64,000 bases of DNA. Source: an uncultured Sphingomonadales bacterium. Its GTDB lineage: Bacteria > Pseudomonadota > Alphaproteobacteria > Sphingomonadales > Sphingomonadaceae. Numbering within the stretch: position 1 is the first letter of the stretch; every line of letters starts with the position of its first letter. Of the stretch, positions 3,653 through 25,818 are shown in pieces. The stretch spans positions 29,064-93,063 of the forward strand of contig CALMZE010000007.1 of the NCBI GenBank assembly GCA_937870585.1. The letters run 5' to 3'. A model generated the notes under the pieces. That model was not told the DNA's origin. It saw only the letters and a list, made by a program, of their open reading frames with translations, and did no database searches. Both the position numbers and the translations under genes were made by a program.

Positions 3653-4351
3653 ATGCTGCTGACCGCCCTTTCGCTGAGCTTTGCCCAATTGGGGGATCGC
3701 CGCATCGTGGGCGTCTTCGCCAAATCCATGCTCATCACGCTGCTGGCGTGCGTCGCCTTGTGGGTGGCGCTGGCGCAAAGCGTTTTGAGTCTCACGCAGG
3801 GCTGGGCCGCTCAGTTTGGGGAAGGCGCAGTGCTGGTGGATGTGATCGTCTGGCTGCTGAGCTTCGCGCTCGCCATGCTCGCCTTCCGCGCCATTGCCAT
3901 GCCCGTCACAGGTCTTTTCGGCGACGAAGTGGTGGCCGCGATTGAAGAGCGGCACTATCCGCAGGCGAGCGAACGGGCCGTGCGTGCGCCGCTCTCAGTC
4001 TCGGTGCGCCTCGGCCTCGCCTCGCTGGCGCGGGTGGTGCTGATCAACCTTCTTGCCCTGCCCTTCTATCTGTTCCTGATCTTCACAGCGATAGGCCCGC
4101 TCATCCTGTTTGTGGGCGTCAACGCCGTTCTACTGGGCCGCGATCTGGCGGAGATGGTGGCCGTGCGGCATCTCGATGGCCCCGCGCGCCGCCAATGGCT
4201 GCGCAACAACCGGCTGGATTATGCGCTGCTGGGGCTGGCGGTCACCGGGCTGTTTCTGGTGCCCTTCCTCAATCTGATCGCCCCCATATTGGGCGCAGCA
4301 GCGGCGACCCATTTATTCCATAAACGCGGCATCGGAGGCGCACAGGCATGA
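3653..4351 (+). CDS. EI24/CysZ-like membrane protein
   Basis: Multi-TM protein with FGDEVVAAIEERHYP and LVPFLNLIAPILGAAAATH. Confidence 0.7.
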   Translation: MLLTALSLSFAQLGDRRIVGVFAKSMLITLLACVALWVALAQSVLSLTQGWAAQFGEGAVLVDVIVWLLSFALAMLAFRAIAMPVTGLFGDEVVAAIEERHYPQASERAVRAPLSVSVRLGLASLARVVLINLLALPFYLFLIFTAIGPLILFVGVNAVLLGRDLAEMVAVRHLDGPARRQWLRNNRLDYALLGLAVTGLFLVPFLNLIAPILGAAAATHLFHKRGIGGAQA

Positions 4352-4731
4352 AGCAGGCTTTGAACGGGCTGGCGCTGGTCGCGCTGCTGCTGGCCCCTGC
4401 GGGCATGGCGGAGGCGCGCAAGAAAAAGAAGGATGTGGACGCCGGGTTCGTGCCGGGGCCGCCCGTCTCAACGCACGCAGCCTCTGGTGTGGAGCGCGTC
4501 ATGGGCAAGGATGCCCGCACGGTGATGGCCTATCTCGGCCGCCCGGTGCTGGATGTGCGTGAAGACGCAGCGCGCAAGCTGCAATTCTCTAATCGCGAAT
4601 GCATATTGGACGCCTTCCTCTATCCGCCGTCGCCCGGCAAGGAGCCGGTCGTGACCTTTGTGACCGCGCGCGTGCCTGATGGTCGCGATGCAGAGAAGAA
4701 CAGCTGCATCGTGGCGCTCAGCCGGGGCTGA
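4348..4731 (+). CDS. Exported hypothetical protein
   Basis: Signal-peptide-like N-terminus; 4-nt overlap with upstream gene. Confidence 0.65.
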
Positions 4732-6723: not shown

Positions 6724-7925
6724 CCCGCTTCTTCCGGCAAGGAGCCGTGATCGCCCGGCGCGATTTTCTGGCGGTGGTAAAAACGCCAACCTTCCTCCTC
6801 TTCCTGCTGGCCCCGGTGTTCATGCTGATGTTCGGCTGGCTGGGCGGCTCTGGCGCATCGCAAGTGGCTGAGGGCGCGAGCAGCCTCTCGCGCATCGCCG
6901 TCATTGCCTCAGACCGCGATGCCGACGGCCTGCGCACGGCCGACAACCGGATGCGCGATTATGGAGATGCGCCGCGCCTGATGGTGGTTCCCGCCGGACC
7001 AGACCCGATGGAACAGGCCAAGACCCTGCTTGAAACGCCCGGCGCAGACTATCTGGCCGTCATGTATGGTCCGCTCGAAGAACCGGTGATCCAGCACGAA
7101 GAAAGTTCGTTGAAGGCCGCTATATGGTTGCAGGGCGTGGCCGATCAGGTGCTGCTCTCTCGCCGGCGCGGCCCGCCCGACACGCTCTCTCGCCCCGCTT
7201 TCCAGCCTCTGAAAGCTCAGCGCGCAGGCGTGGGGATGCAACGCCAGACTGGCTATGTTGCGGTGGTCACGGTGTTCATGCTTACGCTGTTGCTTGCCGG
7301 GCAGGCCGTGGGAATGCTGGCCGAAGAGAAATCGAACAAGGTGATCGAAATCCTCGCCGCCGCCGTGCCGTTGGAGGCCGTATTCCTTGGCAAGTTGGTC
7401 GGCATGTTCGGCGTCGCTTTGCTGTTCGTCGCCTTTTGGAGTGGGCTTTTGAGCGGTATAATGCTGCTCGTACCCGGCACGGGCGATGAACTGGCGGCGC
7501 TGGCGCCTGCTATTGGCTTGCCAGCCTTTCTGGTCCTTGGCGCGCTCTATTTCACCATGGCCTATATGCTGCTCGGCGCTGTGTTCCTCGGTATTGGCGG
7601 ATTGGCGGCGACGGTGCGTGACATCCAGATGCTGTCCTTCCCCGTCACCATCCTGCAAATGGCCATGTTCGGTCTGGCAACGGTTGCAGCAGGCCAGCCG
7701 CAAACCAGCATGGCGCGTTTTGCCGAAATCTTCCCGCTCAGTTCACCCTATGCGATGGCCGCTCGCGGTGCGCATGACCCCTCGCTCACGCCGCATCTTC
7801 TGGCGCTGGCGTGGCAGAGTCTGTGGGTGGCCATCATCATCTGGATCGCGGCGCGCCTGTTCCGGCACGGCGTTCTGCGGTCAGGTGGAGGCCTGTTTGC
7901 GATGATTGGCCGCAAAGCTCGTTGA
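6720..7925 (+). CDS. ABC-2 type permease (NatB-like)
   Basis: AEEKSNKVIEIL motif, multiple TMs, 4-nt overlap with ATPase. Confidence 0.88.
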   Translation: MTRFFRQGAVIARRDFLAVVKTPTFLLFLLAPVFMLMFGWLGGSGASQVAEGASSLSRIAVIASDRDADGLRTADNRMRDYGDAPRLMVVPAGPDPMEQAKTLLETPGADYLAVMYGPLEEPVIQHEESSLKAAIWLQGVADQVLLSRRRGPPDTLSRPAFQPLKAQRAGVGMQRQTGYVAVVTVFMLTLLLAGQAVGMLAEEKSNKVIEILAAAVPLEAVFLGKLVGMFGVALLFVAFWSGLLSGIMLLVPGTGDELAALAPAIGLPAFLVLGALYFTMAYMLLGAVFLGIGGLAATVRDIQMLSFPVTILQMAMFGLATVAAGQPQTSMARFAEIFPLSSPYAMAARGAHDPSLTPHLLALAWQSLWVAIIIWIAARLFRHGVLRSGGGLFAMIGRKAR

Positions 7926-9301: not shown

Positions 9302-9326
9302 GTGAACGCAGCTGAACCCTCAGCGC

Positions 9327-9396
9327 AAAAAAGAGGCCGGTCGTTGCCGACCGGCCTGTATAAGTTTGATAGGAGAGGATGCCTGAAAGGCAGTTT
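9327..9396 (-). ncRNA. suhB: SuhB-like small RNA (5' end approximate)
   Basis: Minus strand: hairpin TGCCT-TTC-AGGCA, single-stranded TCCTCTCCT, terminator AGGCCGGTCG-GCAA-CGACCGGCCT followed by a T tract; divergent from a LysR gene. Confidence 0.7.
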
Positions 9397-9446
9397 CTTT
9401 TTGCGCTGCGGTGTAATGTTTCGCAAGTGCGAAATAAAAAATCACG

Positions 9447-19470: not shown

Positions 19471-22110
19471 TCAGAACTTCACTGTGGCTTCGATCCCGTA
19501 GGTGCGCGGCTGCGCGCGGACGCGGTAGCCATTGCCGAACAGATTCTCGATCGAGATGCCGAAGGGATAATAGGTCTTGTTGGCGAGGTTTTTGCCCCAC
19601 AACGCAACCGAGAAGCGATCTGTATCGTAGGAAATCCGGCCATTGAGCGTCCAATATTTGCCCTCGCCATTGCCGAATTTGCCGGAGGCCACAGCAGGCA
19701 GCGGCCCACGGCTATAATCCTTGAACGAGTCATAGTAGAACTGACCGGTATAGGCAGCATCGCCATGGACGTTGATCTTGCCCGCATCGGTTTCAAAGGC
19801 CCGCCAGTCAAAGCCCAGATTGATCGACGATTTGGCCGCATAAGGGAACGGGTTCCCCGCCACGCTCACCGGCCCGCCCGAAGACACCACGCAGCTTCCC
19901 AGCTGAGCCGGGAAGTTGGGGATCAGCGCCGGATTGGCAGGGCATTCACCCTTGGCATATTTGCTGTCGAGCAAACCGAGCGAGGCGCTCAGCTTCAGGC
20001 TGTCGGTTGCCTGGAACTGCGCATCGAGCTCGATGCCCTTCATCGTGCCGTCAAGCGAGATCAGGTTGGCGGTTGCGGTCGCATCCACCACCTGACCCTG
20101 CTGGCCCTTATAATCATAGTAGAAGAAGGCGCCGTTGATCTGCACGCGGTTGTCCGCAAAGCGCGTCTTGAAGCCGAATTCATAGGCGTTCACGCTTTCC
20201 GGCTTCACGAAATACACTTGGTTCGCGCTGCCATAGGCCAGACCATTGAACGTGCCCGCACGATAGCCACGGCTATAGCTGGCATAGAACATGACGGCGT
20301 CGCTCGGCTTCCAGTCCAGAATGGCGCGGCCAGACAAACGGCCCGAAGATCCCTTTCGCTCCAAGCCGCCCGGAAGCGGAATGCCCAGCGTCTGGAAGGA
20401 CGGGATTACCACAGCCCCAGCTTCGTTATAGACTGGCTGGAGAAAATAGGGGGCCAAGGCCCCGCCCTGCGTGAAGTTGGACACGGTCAGCAGCCGCGCG
20501 ACCCCGCGATCATCATAATAGGTGGTCAAGCCGTCGCTGAACTTGTTCTTGTCGCTGGTGTAGCGCAGGCCGGCCGTGAGCTTCACTGTGTCGGTGATCT
20601 CGTAGCTGCCTTCGCCATAAATGGCGTAGGATTTGCGGTCCTGCTTGAAGTGCTGCGTGGCGGTGATGCCGGTGGGCAGCGAACCCGCCGAAAGCGCCGT
20701 TCCGCCAAACGCTCCGCCCGGGTTGAACCAGCCCGCAGCACGGCCCGGCACGGCGGCATAAATCCCCGCCGCGCCATCAAGCGCCGCATTCACATCGCGC
20801 AGGAAGTTGAAGAAGTCGGGCTTGTTGTCGGCCGTCACGCTGTCCTTGCCGAAATAGCCGCCCAGGATCATCTTGAACCTGTCGCTCGAATAATCGAGGC
20901 GCAAATCCTGATTGAAGGCGTGGAATTTCGAATTGTAGCCGATCGAGCAGCCGCGCAGGGGCGTGGCGTCACAATCGGTGTTGAGCTGCGAATAGAGGCC
21001 CGAATCATATCCGGTGATCGAAGTGAGGCTCAGCTTGTCAGCCAGTTCTACCTTGGCCGTAAAGACCACCCCTTCGGACCGGGTCACCGCCCTGCCAACG
21101 CTGTCAGCTTCGATTTCATTGATGCCAAGGCCGCGCCCGCTCTGGCTGTATCCAGCCGGGAGAATGCCTGCGCCGCCCGGCCCGAGCGCCTGAAAAAGCG
21201 GACCGAGCAGGAAATTGTTGCTGAGATAGTTAAGTTGGTCGCTGGTCCGCGATTGCCCGGTGGGGATCGGCGTTTCGGTTCCGCCCTTCATCTTGGCGGC
21301 ATAGCCCTTCACAGTGAAGTCCACCGTGTCAGACGCCTTGAAACGCAGCGTGCCGCGAATGCCGTATGATTTGGAACCGCCCGGCTGAATGCCGGTCGCC
21401 TTGTTCAGGCCCGACGCGCCAAAGGCCGCGAACGTGTTATTCCCCGCTTTCAAACGGTTGTGAACATAGGGATCGGAATCGACATAGGTGCCTGCAACAC
21501 GAAGGCCGATCTTGTCCGCCACCGGTGTCACTTCAAACGCACCGGTAAAATTCACGCGGTTGAAATTGCCATAGCCCGCCGTCAGCGTGCCGTTCATGCC
21601 TTCCAGCGCAGGCTTGCGCGTGATGAAGTTGATCGCGCCGCCGGTCGTGTTGCGGCCATAAAGCGTGCCCTGCGGGCCACGCACCACTTCGATCTGTTCA
21701 AGATCGTAAAGCTGCTGACCATGACTGGCACGGAATGCCTGATAGACTTCGTCAACATACACACCAACCGGCGATGCCGCATTGGCATTGAACTCGGTCC
21801 CCACACCGACGCCGCGCACCGAGAAGTTGGGCTGCTGCTCGCCATAAGGGGATGACACCTGAAGGTTCGGCATTGAGTGATTGAGATCGGACGTTTCGAA
21901 CACGCCCTGATTGGCAAGAGACGCCGCCGAGATCGCCGAAACTGCAACCGGCACATCCTGCAAATTTTCATTTCGCTTGGTTGCCGTAACGACAATGTCT
22001 TCTAGGCCGACCGCTTCTTCGGCACCCTGCGATTGCGCGAGTGCAACGCTGGACGTGCTCGCCAACGCAAGAATCAGACTACCCGTAAACAGCTTGGAGC
22101 TCATGCTCAT
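19471..22110 (-). CDS. TonB-dependent receptor
   Basis: Signal peptide, DIVVTATKR TonB-box region, EVVRGPQGTLYGRNTTGG plug, C-terminal PRTYGIEATVKF; start 22110 or 22104. Confidence 0.95.
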   Translation of the reverse strand: MSMSSKLFTGSLILALASTSSVALAQSQGAEEAVGLEDIVVTATKRNENLQDVPVAVSAISAASLANQGVFETSDLNHSMPNLQVSSPYGEQQPNFSVRGVGVGTEFNANAASPVGVYVDEVYQAFRASHGQQLYDLEQIEVVRGPQGTLYGRNTTGGAINFITRKPALEGMNGTLTAGYGNFNRVNFTGAFEVTPVADKIGLRVAGTYVDSDPYVHNRLKAGNNTFAAFGASGLNKATGIQPGGSKSYGIRGTLRFKASDTVDFTVKGYAAKMKGGTETPIPTGQSRTSDQLNYLSNNFLLGPLFQALGPGGAGILPAGYSQSGRGLGINEIEADSVGRAVTRSEGVVFTAKVELADKLSLTSITGYDSGLYSQLNTDCDATPLRGCSIGYNSKFHAFNQDLRLDYSSDRFKMILGGYFGKDSVTADNKPDFFNFLRDVNAALDGAAGIYAAVPGRAAGWFNPGGAFGGTALSAGSLPTGITATQHFKQDRKSYAIYGEGSYEITDTVKLTAGLRYTSDKNKFSDGLTTYYDDRGVARLLTVSNFTQGGALAPYFLQPVYNEAGAVVIPSFQTLGIPLPGGLERKGSSGRLSGRAILDWKPSDAVMFYASYSRGYRAGTFNGLAYGSANQVYFVKPESVNAYEFGFKTRFADNRVQINGAFFYYDYKGQQGQVVDATATANLISLDGTMKGIELDAQFQATDSLKLSASLGLLDSKYAKGECPANPALIPNFPAQLGSCVVSSGGPVSVAGNPFPYAAKSSINLGFDWRAFETDAGKINVHGDAAYTGQFYYDSFKDYSRGPLPAVASGKFGNGEGKYWTLNGRISYDTDRFSVALWGKNLANKTYYPFGISIENLFGNGYRVRAQPRTYGIEATVKF

Positions 22111-22232
22111 CCTCCCTCTCCCATTTCACGCCCGTGAATCAGTTTTTACGTGACGTTGATACGCAAAATAGACTAAGCGAGAATCATGTCAACATATTTA
22201 CTACATGGTCTGAAACGAGGAGGAGGAAGAGG

Positions 22233-23279
22233 GTGAGCTGGCTCAAATCGCTCTTTGGAAGCAAGGAACCGCGTGCTGTTATCGTTCAGCCCTCTGGCAC
22301 GCGCTTTGCCGTTGAAGGCAGCGAAACGATCCTCGAACGTGCGCTCAAGGAAGGCCTGCCCTATCCGCATGATTGCACCGTGGGCACCTGCGGCGCGTGT
22401 CGCACCAAGCTGCTTTCGGGCAAGGTCGATGCGATCACGCCCTTTGGCTACACGCTGAGCCGCGAAGAGCTCGACGCGGGGTATATTCTGGCCTGTCAGG
22501 CGCAGCCCAAGTCCGATCTAGTTCTGGAGGTTGATCTCTCGGCCTCCGCGATGGAGCATGTCACCACCCCGGCCCGGCTGGCCGCCACCACGCCGCTGAC
22601 GCACGATATCATGAAGGTGGAGTGGGACGCCGAAACGCCCATGGCGTTCAAGGCGGGGCAATATGTCAATGTCCGCTGGGACGGAGGGGCGACGCACCGC
22701 TCTTACTCCTTCGCTACCGCCCCAGAACCGGGCGGCAGCACGCGCCTGACCAGCTTCATCCGCCATGTGCCCGGCGGCGCGTTTACGGATGCGCTGTTCA
22801 GCGGCAAAGCGGACGGCATGGCGTTCGAGCTGGACGGCCCGCACGGGGCTTTCTGGCTGCGCGAAGGCAAAGGCCCGATCCTGTGCATCGCAGGCGGCAG
22901 CGGCCTCGCGCCGCTCATCAGCCTGTTGCAGGACGCCGCCAAGCGCCGCGTCCGCCGCGACGTTGTGCTGCTGTTCGGCGGACGGGGAGAGCGCGACCTG
23001 TATTGCGAGGGCGAAATCTCGGCGATCCGCTCTGCCTGGACGGCGGGCTTCGATTATTGGCCCGTCCTCTCCGAAACGCCTGCCGAAGGCATCCGCTCCG
23101 GCATGGTCACGGCGCACATCGCGGCGGCACTGGATCGGCTGGGGCCGGATGCGCAGGCCTATCTCTGCGGGCCACCCGCGATGATCGACGCCGCCATTGC
23201 AGACCTGATGCATCACGGCGTGGGGATGGACGCGATCTTCTACGACAAGTTCACCGATGCCAGCTCGGCCCTAGACTGA
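22233..23279 (+). CDS. 2Fe-2S/FAD/NAD oxygenase reductase (XylA-like)
   Basis: CTVGTCGAC...LACQ ferredoxin, RSYSFA, GPHG, AGGSGLAP, YLCGPP; GTG start after AGGAGGAGG. Confidence 0.92.
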   Translation: MSWLKSLFGSKEPRAVIVQPSGTRFAVEGSETILERALKEGLPYPHDCTVGTCGACRTKLLSGKVDAITPFGYTLSREELDAGYILACQAQPKSDLVLEVDLSASAMEHVTTPARLAATTPLTHDIMKVEWDAETPMAFKAGQYVNVRWDGGATHRSYSFATAPEPGGSTRLTSFIRHVPGGAFTDALFSGKADGMAFELDGPHGAFWLREGKGPILCIAGGSGLAPLISLLQDAAKRRVRRDVVLLFGGRGERDLYCEGEISAIRSAWTAGFDYWPVLSETPAEGIRSGMVTAHIAAALDRLGPDAQAYLCGPPAMIDAAIADLMHHGVGMDAIFYDKFTDASSALD

Positions 23280-23296
23280 GACAAAAGGAGAGAGAC

Positions 23297-24736
23297 ATGA
23301 CCCTGAACCGCACCGCCTTCTTCATCAACAACCAGTGGGCCAAGCCCGCCAGCGATCGCACCTTCACGATCATCAACGCCTCCACCGGCGAGCCCATCGC
23401 CACCGTGCCGGAAGGCGTGGAAGCCGATATGGACGCCGCCGTAGCCGCTGCCCGGAATGCGTTCGACAATAGCGGCTGGGCCACGGCTCCTGCTTCTGAG
23501 CGCGCCGCCGTGATGCTGCGGTTCATGGAGGCGATGGCGAAGCGTGGGCCGCAGTTGGCCGAGGCGGTGTCGCTGCAAAACGGGATGCCCGTCTCGCTCT
23601 CCAATATGCTGGAGGCGCAGTTCCCCGCCGGGCTGCTGCAATATTATGCCAGCCTTGCCGATACCATTGGCCAACCCGATGTGCGCCCCTCGCAAATGGG
23701 CAAGGAAACACTCGTCGAACGCCGCGCTATTGGCGTGGTCGCGGCCATTGTGCCGTGGAACTTCCCCGTCACGCTTGCTTTCTCCAAGATCGCCCCGGCG
23801 ATGCTCGCGGGCTGCACTCTGGTCATCAAGCCCTCACCCGGCACCGTGCTCGACAGCTATCTCGTTGCCGAGGCCGCGCTGGAAGCGGGCGTTCCGGCGG
23901 GCGTGATCAACATCGTCGCGGCAGACCGCGCGGCGGGCGCCTACCTCGTCTCGCACCCTCAGGTGGACAAGGTCGCCTTCACCGGATCGACGGGCGCGGG
24001 CCGCAAGATTGCGGGCGTCTGCGGAGAGCTCCTCCGTCCGGTGACGCTGGAGCTGGGCGGCAAATCCGCGGCCGTGCTGCTGGAAGATGTGGACCTGAAC
24101 GTCTTTCTGCCCGGCATCCCCATGGCCTCGATGCTCAACAATGGCCAGGCTTGCTACAACGCCACCCGGATCCTCGCGCCCGCCAAACGCTATGACGAGA
24201 TTGTCGGCGCGGTCGCGGGCATGGTGTCTCAACTCAGCGTGGGCGATGCAATGGACGCCGCCACTCATGTCGGTCCGATGGCGAGCGCCGCGCACCGTGA
24301 CCGGGTGGAAGGCTATATCGCCAAGGGCCGCGAGGAAGCCCGCCTCGTCGCAGGCGGCGGACGCCCGGCCAATCACAATCGCGGCTGGTTCGTCGAGCCC
24401 ACCGTCTTTGCCGATGTGTCGAACGACGCGGTGATCGCGCAGGAGGAAATCTTCGGCCCGGTCCTCTCGATCATCAAATATAGCGACGAGGCCGACGCGA
24501 TCCGCATTGCCAATGACAGCGCGTTCGGCCTTGGCGGCTCCGTGTGGAGTGCCGATTCCGCCCACGCCACCGACATCGCCCGCCGCGTCGAGAGCGGCAC
24601 CGTCGGCGTCAACGGTTATATGCCCGCACTCGGCTCCCCCTTTGGCGGCGTGAAGGCGAGTGGAATGGGCAGCGAGTTCGGTCCCGAAGCCGTGGCGGGC
24701 TATCAGCGGGTGAAGTCGATTTACGTAATGGGTTAA
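23297..24736 (+). CDS. Aldehyde dehydrogenase
   Basis: PWNFP, FTGSTGAG, LELGGKS, NGQAC, EEIFGP; SD AAGGAGAG. Confidence 0.95.
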   Translation: MTLNRTAFFINNQWAKPASDRTFTIINASTGEPIATVPEGVEADMDAAVAAARNAFDNSGWATAPASERAAVMLRFMEAMAKRGPQLAEAVSLQNGMPVSLSNMLEAQFPAGLLQYYASLADTIGQPDVRPSQMGKETLVERRAIGVVAAIVPWNFPVTLAFSKIAPAMLAGCTLVIKPSPGTVLDSYLVAEAALEAGVPAGVINIVAADRAAGAYLVSHPQVDKVAFTGSTGAGRKIAGVCGELLRPVTLELGGKSAAVLLEDVDLNVFLPGIPMASMLNNGQACYNATRILAPAKRYDEIVGAVAGMVSQLSVGDAMDAATHVGPMASAAHRDRVEGYIAKGREEARLVAGGGRPANHNRGWFVEPTVFADVSNDAVIAQEEIFGPVLSIIKYSDEADAIRIANDSAFGLGGSVWSADSAHATDIARRVESGTVGVNGYMPALGSPFGGVKASGMGSEFGPEAVAGYQRVKSIYVMG

Positions 24737-25029
24737 GGCCTGCCGTTCCCCAAGTCTGGCCCAAAGTCAGCGGAGCGAAAAGCGCTCGCTGGCTCTTGGG
24801 TGTCGTAGCACTGGCGTCTCGCATCAAGCAGAAGGGAGCGGAATTGACCGGACACGGGCCTGCGCCATGTGTCCCTGTTGAGAGGCGGCGGATGGATCTC
24901 CGAGGAAAAGAGCTGGAGCTATGCTGCACCCCGTTCGGTTTAGCCTTCGCAATCGGTCTGGCGCTGTTTCGGCTTCGACCTTGAAAAACGTGCGATACCT
25001 GCCGTTCGGTATGGCATCTACTTCCAAAC

Positions 25030-25355
25030 TGGTGCGGGCGGGGGGAATCGAACCCCCAAGGGCAAATGCCCGACGGATTTTCTTACCAGCTACGGCTTTC
25101 GCCGCCACGCGCGCCGGAAACCGGCCACGCATGTTTGTGGTCTGGACTATCCCTTCACCGTGCCTTGGGTATCCAAGGGGTAGGTGCTGCCCGTCTAGTC
25201 TCTACACCTTCCCCGATGCGTGTGCATCCGGGCTTGGCTCGGGATTGCCATGTAACAGGTTTCCCCGAATTTGAGCAGTTCTGCATCGCGGGTTTCCCCG
25301 AGAGCACTCATGATTGGCCTAAGTCCGTTGCGTCTACCGATTTCGCCACGCCCGC
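25030..25355 (-). tRNA. trnL: tRNA-Leu(UAA), intron-containing (exons 25321-25355 and 25030-25081)
   Basis: Joined exons give GCGGGCG...ACGGA-CT-TAA-AA-TCCGT...GGGGG-TTCGATT-CCCCC-CGCCCGC-ACCA, 87 nt. Confidence 0.95.
25082..25320 (-). ncRNA. Self-splicing group I intron (trnL/IC3 type), 239 nt
   Basis: Inserted at U^AA; P AATTCGGGGAAACC, Q GGCAATCCCGAGCC, R GTAGAGACTAGACGG, S GAAGGGATAGTCC; terminal G; exon ACTT can pair with intron GAGT (P1 with U-G). Confidence 0.92.
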
Positions 25356-25397
25356 ATCCGGCCTGACTATAGTCAGGCCTTCGCCATCCGCCAAGCC

Positions 25398-25676
25398 TCA
25401 GGCGTTCAGACGATCGCGCATTTCCTTGCCGGGCTTGAAGTGCGGCACGCGCTTCGCATCCACCGGAACGGAATCGCCGGTGCGCGGATTGCGCCCGGTG
25501 CGGCCATCACGCTCGCGCGTTGAAAAGGCACCAAAGCCGCGCAGTTCAACACGCCCGCCTTCGGCCAGACGCGCCACAATGATGTCGAAGAAGGAATCGA
25601 CGATGGTTTCAACTTCACGCAATGTGAGGCCGGGATTCTCTTTGACCAGTGCACTCACCAACTCGGATCGGATCAT
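25398..25676 (-). CDS. ihfB: Integration host factor beta subunit
   Basis: MIRSEL...[10 protein letters not shown]...GRNPRTG...[13 protein letters not shown]. Confidence 0.97.
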
Positions 25677-25818
25677 ATCCACCCCTGTTGCGACATGATC
25701 TACAATCCGGTCTCCCCCATGAAGTCCGGACAGGAAGATGCGGGCCAACTAACGCCTGCAAGGTCCCCCCGGCCATGTCGCTGACGCGTCAATCCGCCAA
25801 AATCCGCACTTTTGCAAC

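Follow-up and report, generated by a model that had tools for sequence, protein, structure and literature searches.

The stretch analysed here, 64,000 nt of contig CALMZE010000007.1 from an uncultured Sphingomonadales bacterium (hereafter the window), carries on its minus strand a tRNA-Leu(UAA) gene (25355..25030) whose anticodon is interrupted by a 239-nt group I intron. An earlier reading of the DNA letters without database searches (the sequence-only reading) had proposed such an intron at 25030-25355, inserted between U34 and A35, and two computational checks that it suggested recovered the feature. The Rfam model RF00028 (Intron_gpI) matched 25330..25126 at 54.6 bits, above its gathering score of 50, with E-values of 4.2e-11 in the search of the whole window and 4e-13 in a local one, and ARAGORN run in intron mode (-i) reported a tRNA-Leu(taa) with the intron notation i(36,239).

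Read on the minus strand from 25355 to 25030, the gene has the order GCGGGCGUGGCGAAAUCGGUAGACGCAACGGACUU / AGGCC...GGUAAG / AAAAUCCGUCGGGCAUUUGCCCUUGGGGGUUCGAUUCCCCCCGCCCGCACCA, which corresponds to 5' exon, intron and 3' exon. The precursor as a whole (25030..25355, minus strand), delimited by ARAGORN -i and by reading of the sequence, measures 326 nt and has its CCA encoded. Its 5' exon (25321..25355, 35 nt) ends in ...ACGGACUU and contains the 5' strand of the acceptor stem, the D arm, the 5' strand of the anticodon stem and C32, U33 and U34. The intron follows at 25082..25320 and is assigned to the IC3 type; the match to RF00028, the fold, the covariation and the identity to a published seed sequence support it as a group I intron, and its last nucleotide, the omega-G, is located at 25082. 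The 3' exon (25030..25081) starts with AAAAUCCGU, ends in CCA and contributes A35 and A36, the remaining anticodon arm, the long variable arm, the T arm and the 3' strand of the acceptor stem. The insertion point thus lies between U34 and A35 (CUU/intron/AAAA). Joined in silico, the exons yielded 87 nt that ARAGORN recognised as tRNA-Leu(taa), a regular cloverleaf with a 7-bp acceptor stem, D, anticodon, long variable and T arms, the anticodon loop CUUAAAA and the encoded CCA.

Standard tRNA callers had been expected to miss this gene, and they did. Default ARAGORN called the three other tRNAs of the window and not the tRNA-Leu(UAA), and the Rfam tRNA model at its gathering threshold did not call it either; default callers miss the only tRNA-Leu(UAA) gene visible in the window. 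Intron boundaries taken from the Rfam match alone are wrong. The last model position of the RF00028 alignment falls on the G at 25126, 44 nt short of the true omega-G at 25082, because the P9 region contains an extra P9a/P9b hairpin extension. The omega-G directly precedes the 3' splice site, and all genuine homologues among the matches listed in our survey (see below) likewise end in G. The main value of the locus lies in annotation, that is, in intron-aware tRNA calling, in the extension of Rfam matches to the true omega-G and in the disregard of open reading frames (ORFs) across the intron.

The sequence-only reading had also stated that a homing endonuclease ORF is lacking, and this was confirmed: no ORF is contained within the 239-nt intron, all of which is filled by the helices P1-P9. 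ORFs of 102-210 amino acids extend over the intron, the exons and the antisense strand of the neighbouring gene ihfB (24824..25132 on the minus strand, 24921..25274 and 25066..25698 on the plus strand). They run over the exon boundaries and are almost certainly spurious, though gene prediction may list them as hypothetical proteins. Weak matches to transfer-messenger RNA and to the LOOT family at the locus did not reach threshold; the tRNA-like T arm and acceptor stem, together with the P8 and P9 hairpins, account for them. An assembly artefact was ruled out by an independent activated-sludge DNA metagenome (run X1), in which a 293-nt contig is identical to 24916..25208 and extends from the 3' flank through the 3' exon into the intron, of which it contains the 3' half. 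A further contig from a wastewater run (X3) is about 96% identical over 24988..25195.

Fold of the intron

The P1-P9 fold was drawn by hand on the model of the Azoarcus and Anabaena architecture and was tested against 121 homologous introns, aligned with plain MAFFT and not fitted to the structure. Standard pairs occupied 89.6% of the cells, as compared with 30-42% when the 3' partners were slid by 1-3 columns. Changes on both sides were found in 52 of the 80 pairs, and the observed values were reached by none of 500 shuffles. Pairing was complete (100%) in P3, P4 and P7, followed by P8 (99.8%), P6 (99.7%), P9b (94.5%) and P2 (93.8%), and the core helices P3-P8 and P4-P6 with the P3/P7 pseudoknot were kept by covariation. 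Pseudoknot-free minimum free energy (MFE) folding regained P2, P4, P6a, P7, P8/P8a, P9a and P9b at -98.5 kcal/mol (z = -2.74). The P, Q, R and S elements were all found (AAAUUCGGGG, AAUCCCGA, GUAGAGACUAGACGG and AAGGGAUAGUCC, respectively); together with the terminal G and a P1 containing a U-G wobble they had been listed by the sequence-only reading, and all of them are present in the window copy.

In P1 (25306..25324), the exon sequence ACUU and the intron sequence AGG pair with CAUGAGU, with one internal G×A mismatch. U34 (25321) and G (25309) form the wobble at the 5' splice site, and A-U, C-G, U-A and A+1-U pairs also occur in the window copy. Most of the 121 homologues were collected by means of a GAGU pattern, which partly forced the invariance of the four P1 exon pairs and of GAGU in these sequences, and therefore only the window's own P1 pairing counts. 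The P2 hairpin (25283..25305) is capped by a GAAA tetraloop (L2, 25296..25293), contains one U×C mismatch, shows compensatory changes in seven of its nine pairs and is present in the MFE structure. The 5' strand of P3 (CUGCUC, 25273..25278) pairs with 25192..25187, and UA/CG as well as GC/CG/UA exchanges were observed; its 3' strand (GGGCAG, 25187..25192) is supported by the alignment test. The P4-P5-P4' domain (25239..25268; UCGGGG ... UCCCGA with a short P5) is supported by the alignment test and the MFE structure, and the adjoining P6 (GCC/GGU) with the hairpin P6a (25206..25238) has compensatory changes in all nine P6a pairs.

The 5' strand of P7 (25196..25202) reads G-A(bulge)-GACUA, and its 3' strand UAGUCC (25144..25149) was recovered in the alignment test; five of the six P7 pairs are invariant in the 121 sequences. 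Beside the bulged A, the G of GACUA pairs with the C of UAGUC, and this G-C pair is among the five invariant ones. We take it to be the position of the guanosine-binding pair, by homology with G264-C311 of Tetrahymena and with the Azoarcus intron. A fold into P3-P7 with a site for guanosine, which had been named as a check on the group I assignment, is borne out by the complete pairing of P3 and P7 and by this pair. P8 (CACC/GGUG), an internal loop and P8a occupy 25156..25186 and are supported by the alignment test and the MFE structure. The L2 tetraloop may contact P8, since the internal loop sits at the position of the receptor in IC3 introns (PMC11571812). The P9 three-way junction (25085..25141) consists of P9 (ACCA/UGGU), a lineage-specific P9a and P9b with a GAAA tetraloop (25100..25097), after which follows AAG, whose G is the omega-G. 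Overall, the intron shows the compact IC3 build, with P2 present, no P5abc extension, GAAA in both L2 and L9, and no ORF.

Splicing and the supply of tRNA-Leu(UAA)

In the proposed mechanism, the 326-nt precursor would adopt a fold in which the anticodon stem together with P1 (exon ACUU with intron GAGU) presents the U34·G wobble. For the cyanobacterial trnL intron, Zaug et al. are said to have described in 1993 a contribution of the anticodon stem to holding the exons. The active site would be formed by the P3-P8 and P4-P6 domains and braced by the GAAA tetraloops of L2 and L9. Free guanosine bound at the G-C pair of P7 would attack after U34; the terminal G (25082) would then take the same site, and the 3'-OH of U34 would attack after this G. 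The exons would thereby be joined to a normal 87-nt tRNA-Leu(UAA) and the intron would be released. We infer this two-step, guanosine-initiated transesterification from the family. The introns of Anabaena, Azoarcus and Agrobacterium are classical self-splicers, and the Bartonella tRNA-Arg intron splices both in vivo and in vitro (PMC7717549).

The window intron is very probably an ordinary member of the type Leu.3Ug, i.e. a compact, endonuclease-less group I intron of the IC3 type that resides in the anticodon loop of tRNA-Leu(UAA) and is spliced by the mechanism of its family. Three points weigh against this assignment. Splicing of the window copy was not observed, as the indexed RNA runs share only conserved 31-mers with the window. 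The intron has three private mismatches at places where its closest relatives pair, namely G×A at P1 +2, U×C in P2 and G×G in P6a. Finally, the analysis covered 64 kb of the genome, and a second, intronless tRNA-Leu(UAA) gene is possible elsewhere. The best sequencing run, of activated-sludge DNA, contained a fraction of 0.40 of the window's words. A 664-nt metatranscriptome contig that skips exactly 239 nt was rejected as a spliced product; it extends into foreign flanks and represents the intronless gene of another organism. For the homologue in Rhizorhabdus (L200), no splice joints were seen in a metatranscriptome assembly.

The private mismatches and the RNA data without a splicing signal would be expected if the intron were decaying and no longer spliced, the gene a pseudogene and the cell served by another tRNA-Leu(UAA). 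We consider this very unlikely. P3, P4, P6, P7, P8, P9b, J8/7, the U·G pair and the omega-G are all intact, the exons form a perfect cloverleaf, and most differences from the nearest relatives within helices compensate each other (3-8 double changes in each comparison). Moreover, tRNA-Leu(UAA) has a single, conserved site in the order, at this very locus, and the related strain of about 96% identity keeps the intron. The three mismatches are read as tolerated variation, not decay, because non-pairs at these positions of P1, P2 and P6a also occur in about 7-11% of the family members and the core is untouched.

A second alternative concerns the codon that this tRNA reads. TTA is rare (about 0.7% of the Leu codons in a crude gene set) and occurs, as the sequence-only reading had correctly noted, at codon 9 of ORF 11823 and at codon 8 of ORF 54787. 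It is also present in genes of the window with Pfam support, an EI24/CysZ-family gene and an amine-oxidase-like gene, and therefore the cell needs tRNA-Leu(UAA). The proposal that splicing gates the decoding of UUA holds only trivially, in that an unspliced tRNA could not serve; nothing in the data suggests regulation. A regulatory gate would mean that splicing is conditionally controlled, for instance through the level of guanosine nucleotides, through stress or through a protein cofactor, and tunes the supply of tRNA-Leu(UAA) and with it the genes with early UUA codons. The rarity of UUA and its position near the start of both ORFs would suit such a gate, which is nevertheless extremely unlikely: the standard helices P1-P9 account for the 239 nt without an extra sensor domain, closely related species are intronless at the same locus, neither ORF has a Pfam family or a known link to the other, and introns of this class are considered selfish or neutral (PMC3984707). 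It is likewise exceedingly improbable that the intron acts as a throttle on this supply and on early-UUA genes, with its patchy occurrence a product of selection and not of selfish spread. Most likely, splicing is constitutive and the intron a near-neutral selfish passenger. Biologically, the locus offers one more instance of a well-known selfish ribozyme.

Occurrence of the intron and history of the locus

One genome per species was scanned with a degenerate pattern composed of GGACTT, the GAGT guide and AGACTNGACGG, which gave at least 120 matches. Among the 120 matches listed, at least about 107 are genuine tRNA-Leu(UAA) genes split at exactly CUU/...G/AAAA, and 12-13 are chance matches, including two cyanobacterial and two archaeal ones that have no intron. 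Cyanobacterial trnL introns are not expected among the matches to a GAGU pattern, because their seed has the guide GGG. By record labels, about 60% of the genuine genes among the matches listed belong to Alphaproteobacteria and about 30% to Acidobacteriota, the rest to Bacteroidota, Burkholderiales and Gammaproteobacteria; the alphaproteobacterial ones include Sphingomonadales, Caulobacterales, Hyphomicrobiales, Rhodobacterales, Azospirillum, Acidocella, Reyranella and Micavibrio. An intron 36-mer reaching from the 3' strand of P2 to P4 occurs exactly in 22 species, about 18 of them Sphingomonadales (genera Sphingorhabdus, Novosphingobium, Sphingomonas, Sphingobium and Altererythrobacter). Wherever the exon context was visible, these 36-mer loci lie in tRNA-Leu(UAA) at the same site, with the exception of one tRNA-Leu(CAA) case (L209, below), and an ihfB match was found within the fetched flank in about half of them. 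In total, the same intron at the same site is present in at least about 30 Sphingomonadales species. The rarity that the sequence-only reading had attributed to the intron did not survive this survey, given at least about 107 split tRNA-Leu(UAA) genes, the sphingomonad species just mentioned and a published seed of 92% identity. Widespread vertical presence in sphingomonads had been named as a finding that would remove the novelty; the presence is indeed widespread, and vertical descent and transfer were not separated.

A few members of the family are unusual. A metagenome-assembled genome (MAG) labelled 'delta proteobacterium' (L209, CAWDMI010000002.1) has two split tRNA-Leu(CAA) genes within 3 kb (4306..4647 and 7226..7571). 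Both contain a related group I intron whose 5' splice site is preceded by C and not by U (GGACUC|...G|AAAAUCC), and a third, intronless tRNA-Leu(CAA) gene lies nearby. The pattern matches the unusual 'Leu.3Cg' type, which was flagged as needing a splicing test (Williams 2020, bioRxiv 10.1101/2020.01.27.920355). The MAG Sphingomonadales UBA7471 contains two different intron-bearing tRNA-Leu(UAA) alleles (L070, DLOZ01000026.1, and L203, DLOZ01000008.1) with introns of 221 and 225 nt, respectively, reflecting either a mixed-strain bin or two split copies in one genome. In the Acidobacteriaceae MAG palsa_277 (L034, 6428..6700), an intron of the family is located in degenerate exon-like flanks, of which the 5' one has no acceptor or D arm, while AAAATCGATCC is read on the 3' side; this may be a decayed or relocated copy.

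In the window, the tRNA-Leu(UAA) gene is located 42 nt downstream of ihfB (25398..25676, minus strand; integration host factor (IHF) beta, 92 amino acids), beyond which rpsA, cmk and aroA follow on the same strand. As the upstream neighbour, ihfB anchors the syntenic position of the tRNA-Leu(UAA) gene in Sphingomonadales. The best genome matches of its product are Sphingomonadales or MAGs unclassified below class or phylum, led by an activated-sludge MAG (L121) with 96% amino acid identity, in agreement with the alphaproteobacterial host that the sequence-only reading had assumed and that can now be specified as a sphingomonad. Strings specific for the window remained unmatched in the scanned metagenome and genome contigs, and the IHF-beta protein had no exact match.

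The spacer between ihfB and the tRNA gene contains a sigma-70-like promoter match, TTGGCG-17-TATAGT (25366..25394, minus strand), which ends 10 nt upstream of the tRNA 5' end; one such match was found where 0.2 were expected. A CTATAG/TATAGT motif about 10 nt upstream of tRNA-Leu(UAA) is shared by the window (25366..25380, minus strand), L121 (2806..2815) and several metagenome contigs and probably serves the tRNA promoter as its -10 box. Because of the match in the spacer and the recurrence of CTATAG in L121 and the metagenome contigs, the tRNA gene probably has its own promoter, its function being assigned from sequence. The motif of the window lies within the inverted repeat GGCCTGACTATAGTCAGGCC.

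On the other side of the tRNA gene synteny breaks. The homology to L121, 90% over cmk-rpsA-ihfB-tRNA, ends there (window 24600..25030 versus L121 2912..5273), and blastn found nothing in the 2.4 kb that follow the L121 tRNA to match the DNA 3' of the window tRNA. The genes of the window on this side (19471..24736) encode an aldehyde dehydrogenase, a ferredoxin-reductase-like protein and a TonB-dependent receptor, and no integrase was seen near the break. Farther away, at 9320..9398 on the minus strand, the small RNA family RF00519 (suhB/mmgR) was matched with 50.2 bits against a gathering score of 41.

The distribution of the intron at this locus was assessed in 80 Sphingomonadales species fetched through ihfB. 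An uninterrupted tRNA-Leu(UAA) gene was found downstream of ihfB in 56 species, mostly immediately downstream, and an intron-bearing one in five; the remaining 19 species had neither form within the fetched flank. Among species with tRNA-Leu(UAA) at the ihfB locus, 5 of 61 thus have the intron and 56 of 61 are intronless. The nearest species, L121, shares 90.2% DNA identity with the window over 2865 bp of cmk-rpsA-ihfB-5' exon, and its tRNA-Leu(UAA) is uninterrupted. The homology stops at 25320, the first intron base, and L121 goes straight on with AAAAUCCGU; as an A stands at this position in both sequences, the alignment places the junction no finer than 25321/25320. The two sister species thus represent a clean presence/absence pair. 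With one close relative sampled, the pair would fit a gain in the lineage of the window or a precise loss in that of L121, and we give similar weight to both. In Sphingomonadales as a whole the patchy intron would have been gained, lost or both, repeatedly at one site.

A recent horizontal gain after the split from the intronless sister, through recombination with an incoming intron-plus tRNA allele or through reverse splicing, reverse transcription and recombination, has close to an even chance of being correct. It would account for the uninterrupted gene of L121 at such overall identity and for the presence of the intron in so few of the sampled species, and the ihfB of the host with the closest intron, Novosphingobium sp. 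CF614, reaches only about 75% DNA identity. However, conservation of the intron core is so strong (still about 80% in comparison with Acidobacteria) that high identity says little on transfer; there is no homing endonuclease, the exons were not co-converted with the nearest intron donor type, and a single close relative is too few to fix the direction of change. Ancient vertical inheritance in Sphingomonadales, with the window in the ancestral state and many independent precise losses elsewhere, for example by recombination with reverse-transcribed mature tRNA, is a serious possibility that falls somewhat below an even chance. The near confinement of the exact-36-mer lineage to Sphingomonadales, the ihfB match in the flank of about half of its loci and the occurrence of the family at the identical site in many alphaproteobacterial orders agree with it, whereas dozens of precise losses would be needed to explain the 56 of 61 intronless species. 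The horizontal acquisition suggested by the sequence-only reading thus remains plausible in view of the patchy distribution and the intronless sister, and the data do not distinguish it from an ancestral intron that was lost precisely and repeatedly. If the genus were sampled more densely, the window and its sister of about 90% identity could help to decide on gain or loss of endonuclease-less tRNA introns.

Relation to known introns

The class to which the intron belongs is already known and catalogued and is not new. Williams (2020, bioRxiv 10.1101/2020.01.27.920355) mapped 5292 tRNA genes split by group I introns in about 80,000 genomes, with Leu.3Ug as one of the four classical bacterial tRNA intron types. 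The first seed of the covariance model from that study, Ncf2.Leu.3Ug, is 92% identical to the window intron over aligned positions and 83% over all columns; the copy of Novosphingobium sp. CF614 (L212) has the same length as this seed and equals it in identity to the window intron. Seed and window intron share the site CUU/...g/AAAA, the host gene tRNA-Leu(UAA), the host order Sphingomonadales, an identical P2-P3-P4 36-mer, P7, J8/7 and P9b, and both lack an ORF. The window intron differs in being 18 nt longer, due to insertions in P8a and P9a, in a different P6a with compensated changes and in its three private mismatches.

The identity of the window intron over all columns amounts to 69-83% with proteobacterial-type seeds, which include two of the four classical types, a set listed as IC3 by GISSD according to Williams (2020, bioRxiv 10.1101/2020.01.27.920355). 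It is 69-70% with proteobacterial tRNA-Arg introns, 61% with the cyanobacterial trnL intron and 56% with the tRNA-Ile intron of Azoarcus, which is shorter. On sequence grounds, the intron is placed in the cluster of proteobacterial and acidobacterial IC3 introns. The work of Paquin et al. (from 1999) and of Vepritskiy et al. (from 2002) reportedly agrees with this placement.

The cyanobacterial and plastid trnL(UAA) intron (Anabaena and Synechococcus type; seed Sel1.Leu.3Ug), to which the sequence-only reading had linked the window intron, has the same host tRNA, the same position at nucleotides 34/35, the IC3 architecture and the mechanism in common with it. Its guide is GGG as opposed to GAGU in the window, and the P6 and P9 peripheries are different as well. 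The link holds for the position and fails for relatedness, and a recent cyanobacterial origin was rejected, as the 61% identity is lower than the 69-70% to proteobacterial tRNA-Arg introns. A gammaproteobacterial tRNA-Leu(UAA) intron at the same site in another host class was reportedly described by Vepritskiy, Vitol and Nierzwicki-Bauer in J Bacteriol in 2002; it is said to be nearer to the proteobacterial tRNA-Arg and tRNA-Ile introns than to cyanobacterial trnL introns and to self-splice in vitro.

The proteobacterial tRNA-Arg and tRNA-Ile introns have a catalytic core that is nearly identical to that of the window intron (CAAAUUCGG.GAAACC, GAGCCAAG, GAAGGUGUAGAGACUAGACGG and AUAGUCCAG), and they share with it the GAAA in L2 and L9, the lack of an ORF and a length of about 200-240 nt. 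The Azoarcus intron has no P9a extension, unlike that of the window. The tRNA-Arg and tRNA-Ile introns reside in other tRNAs at position 5 of the anticodon loop (after nucleotides 36/37), and their P1 guide is different because of this other insertion position.

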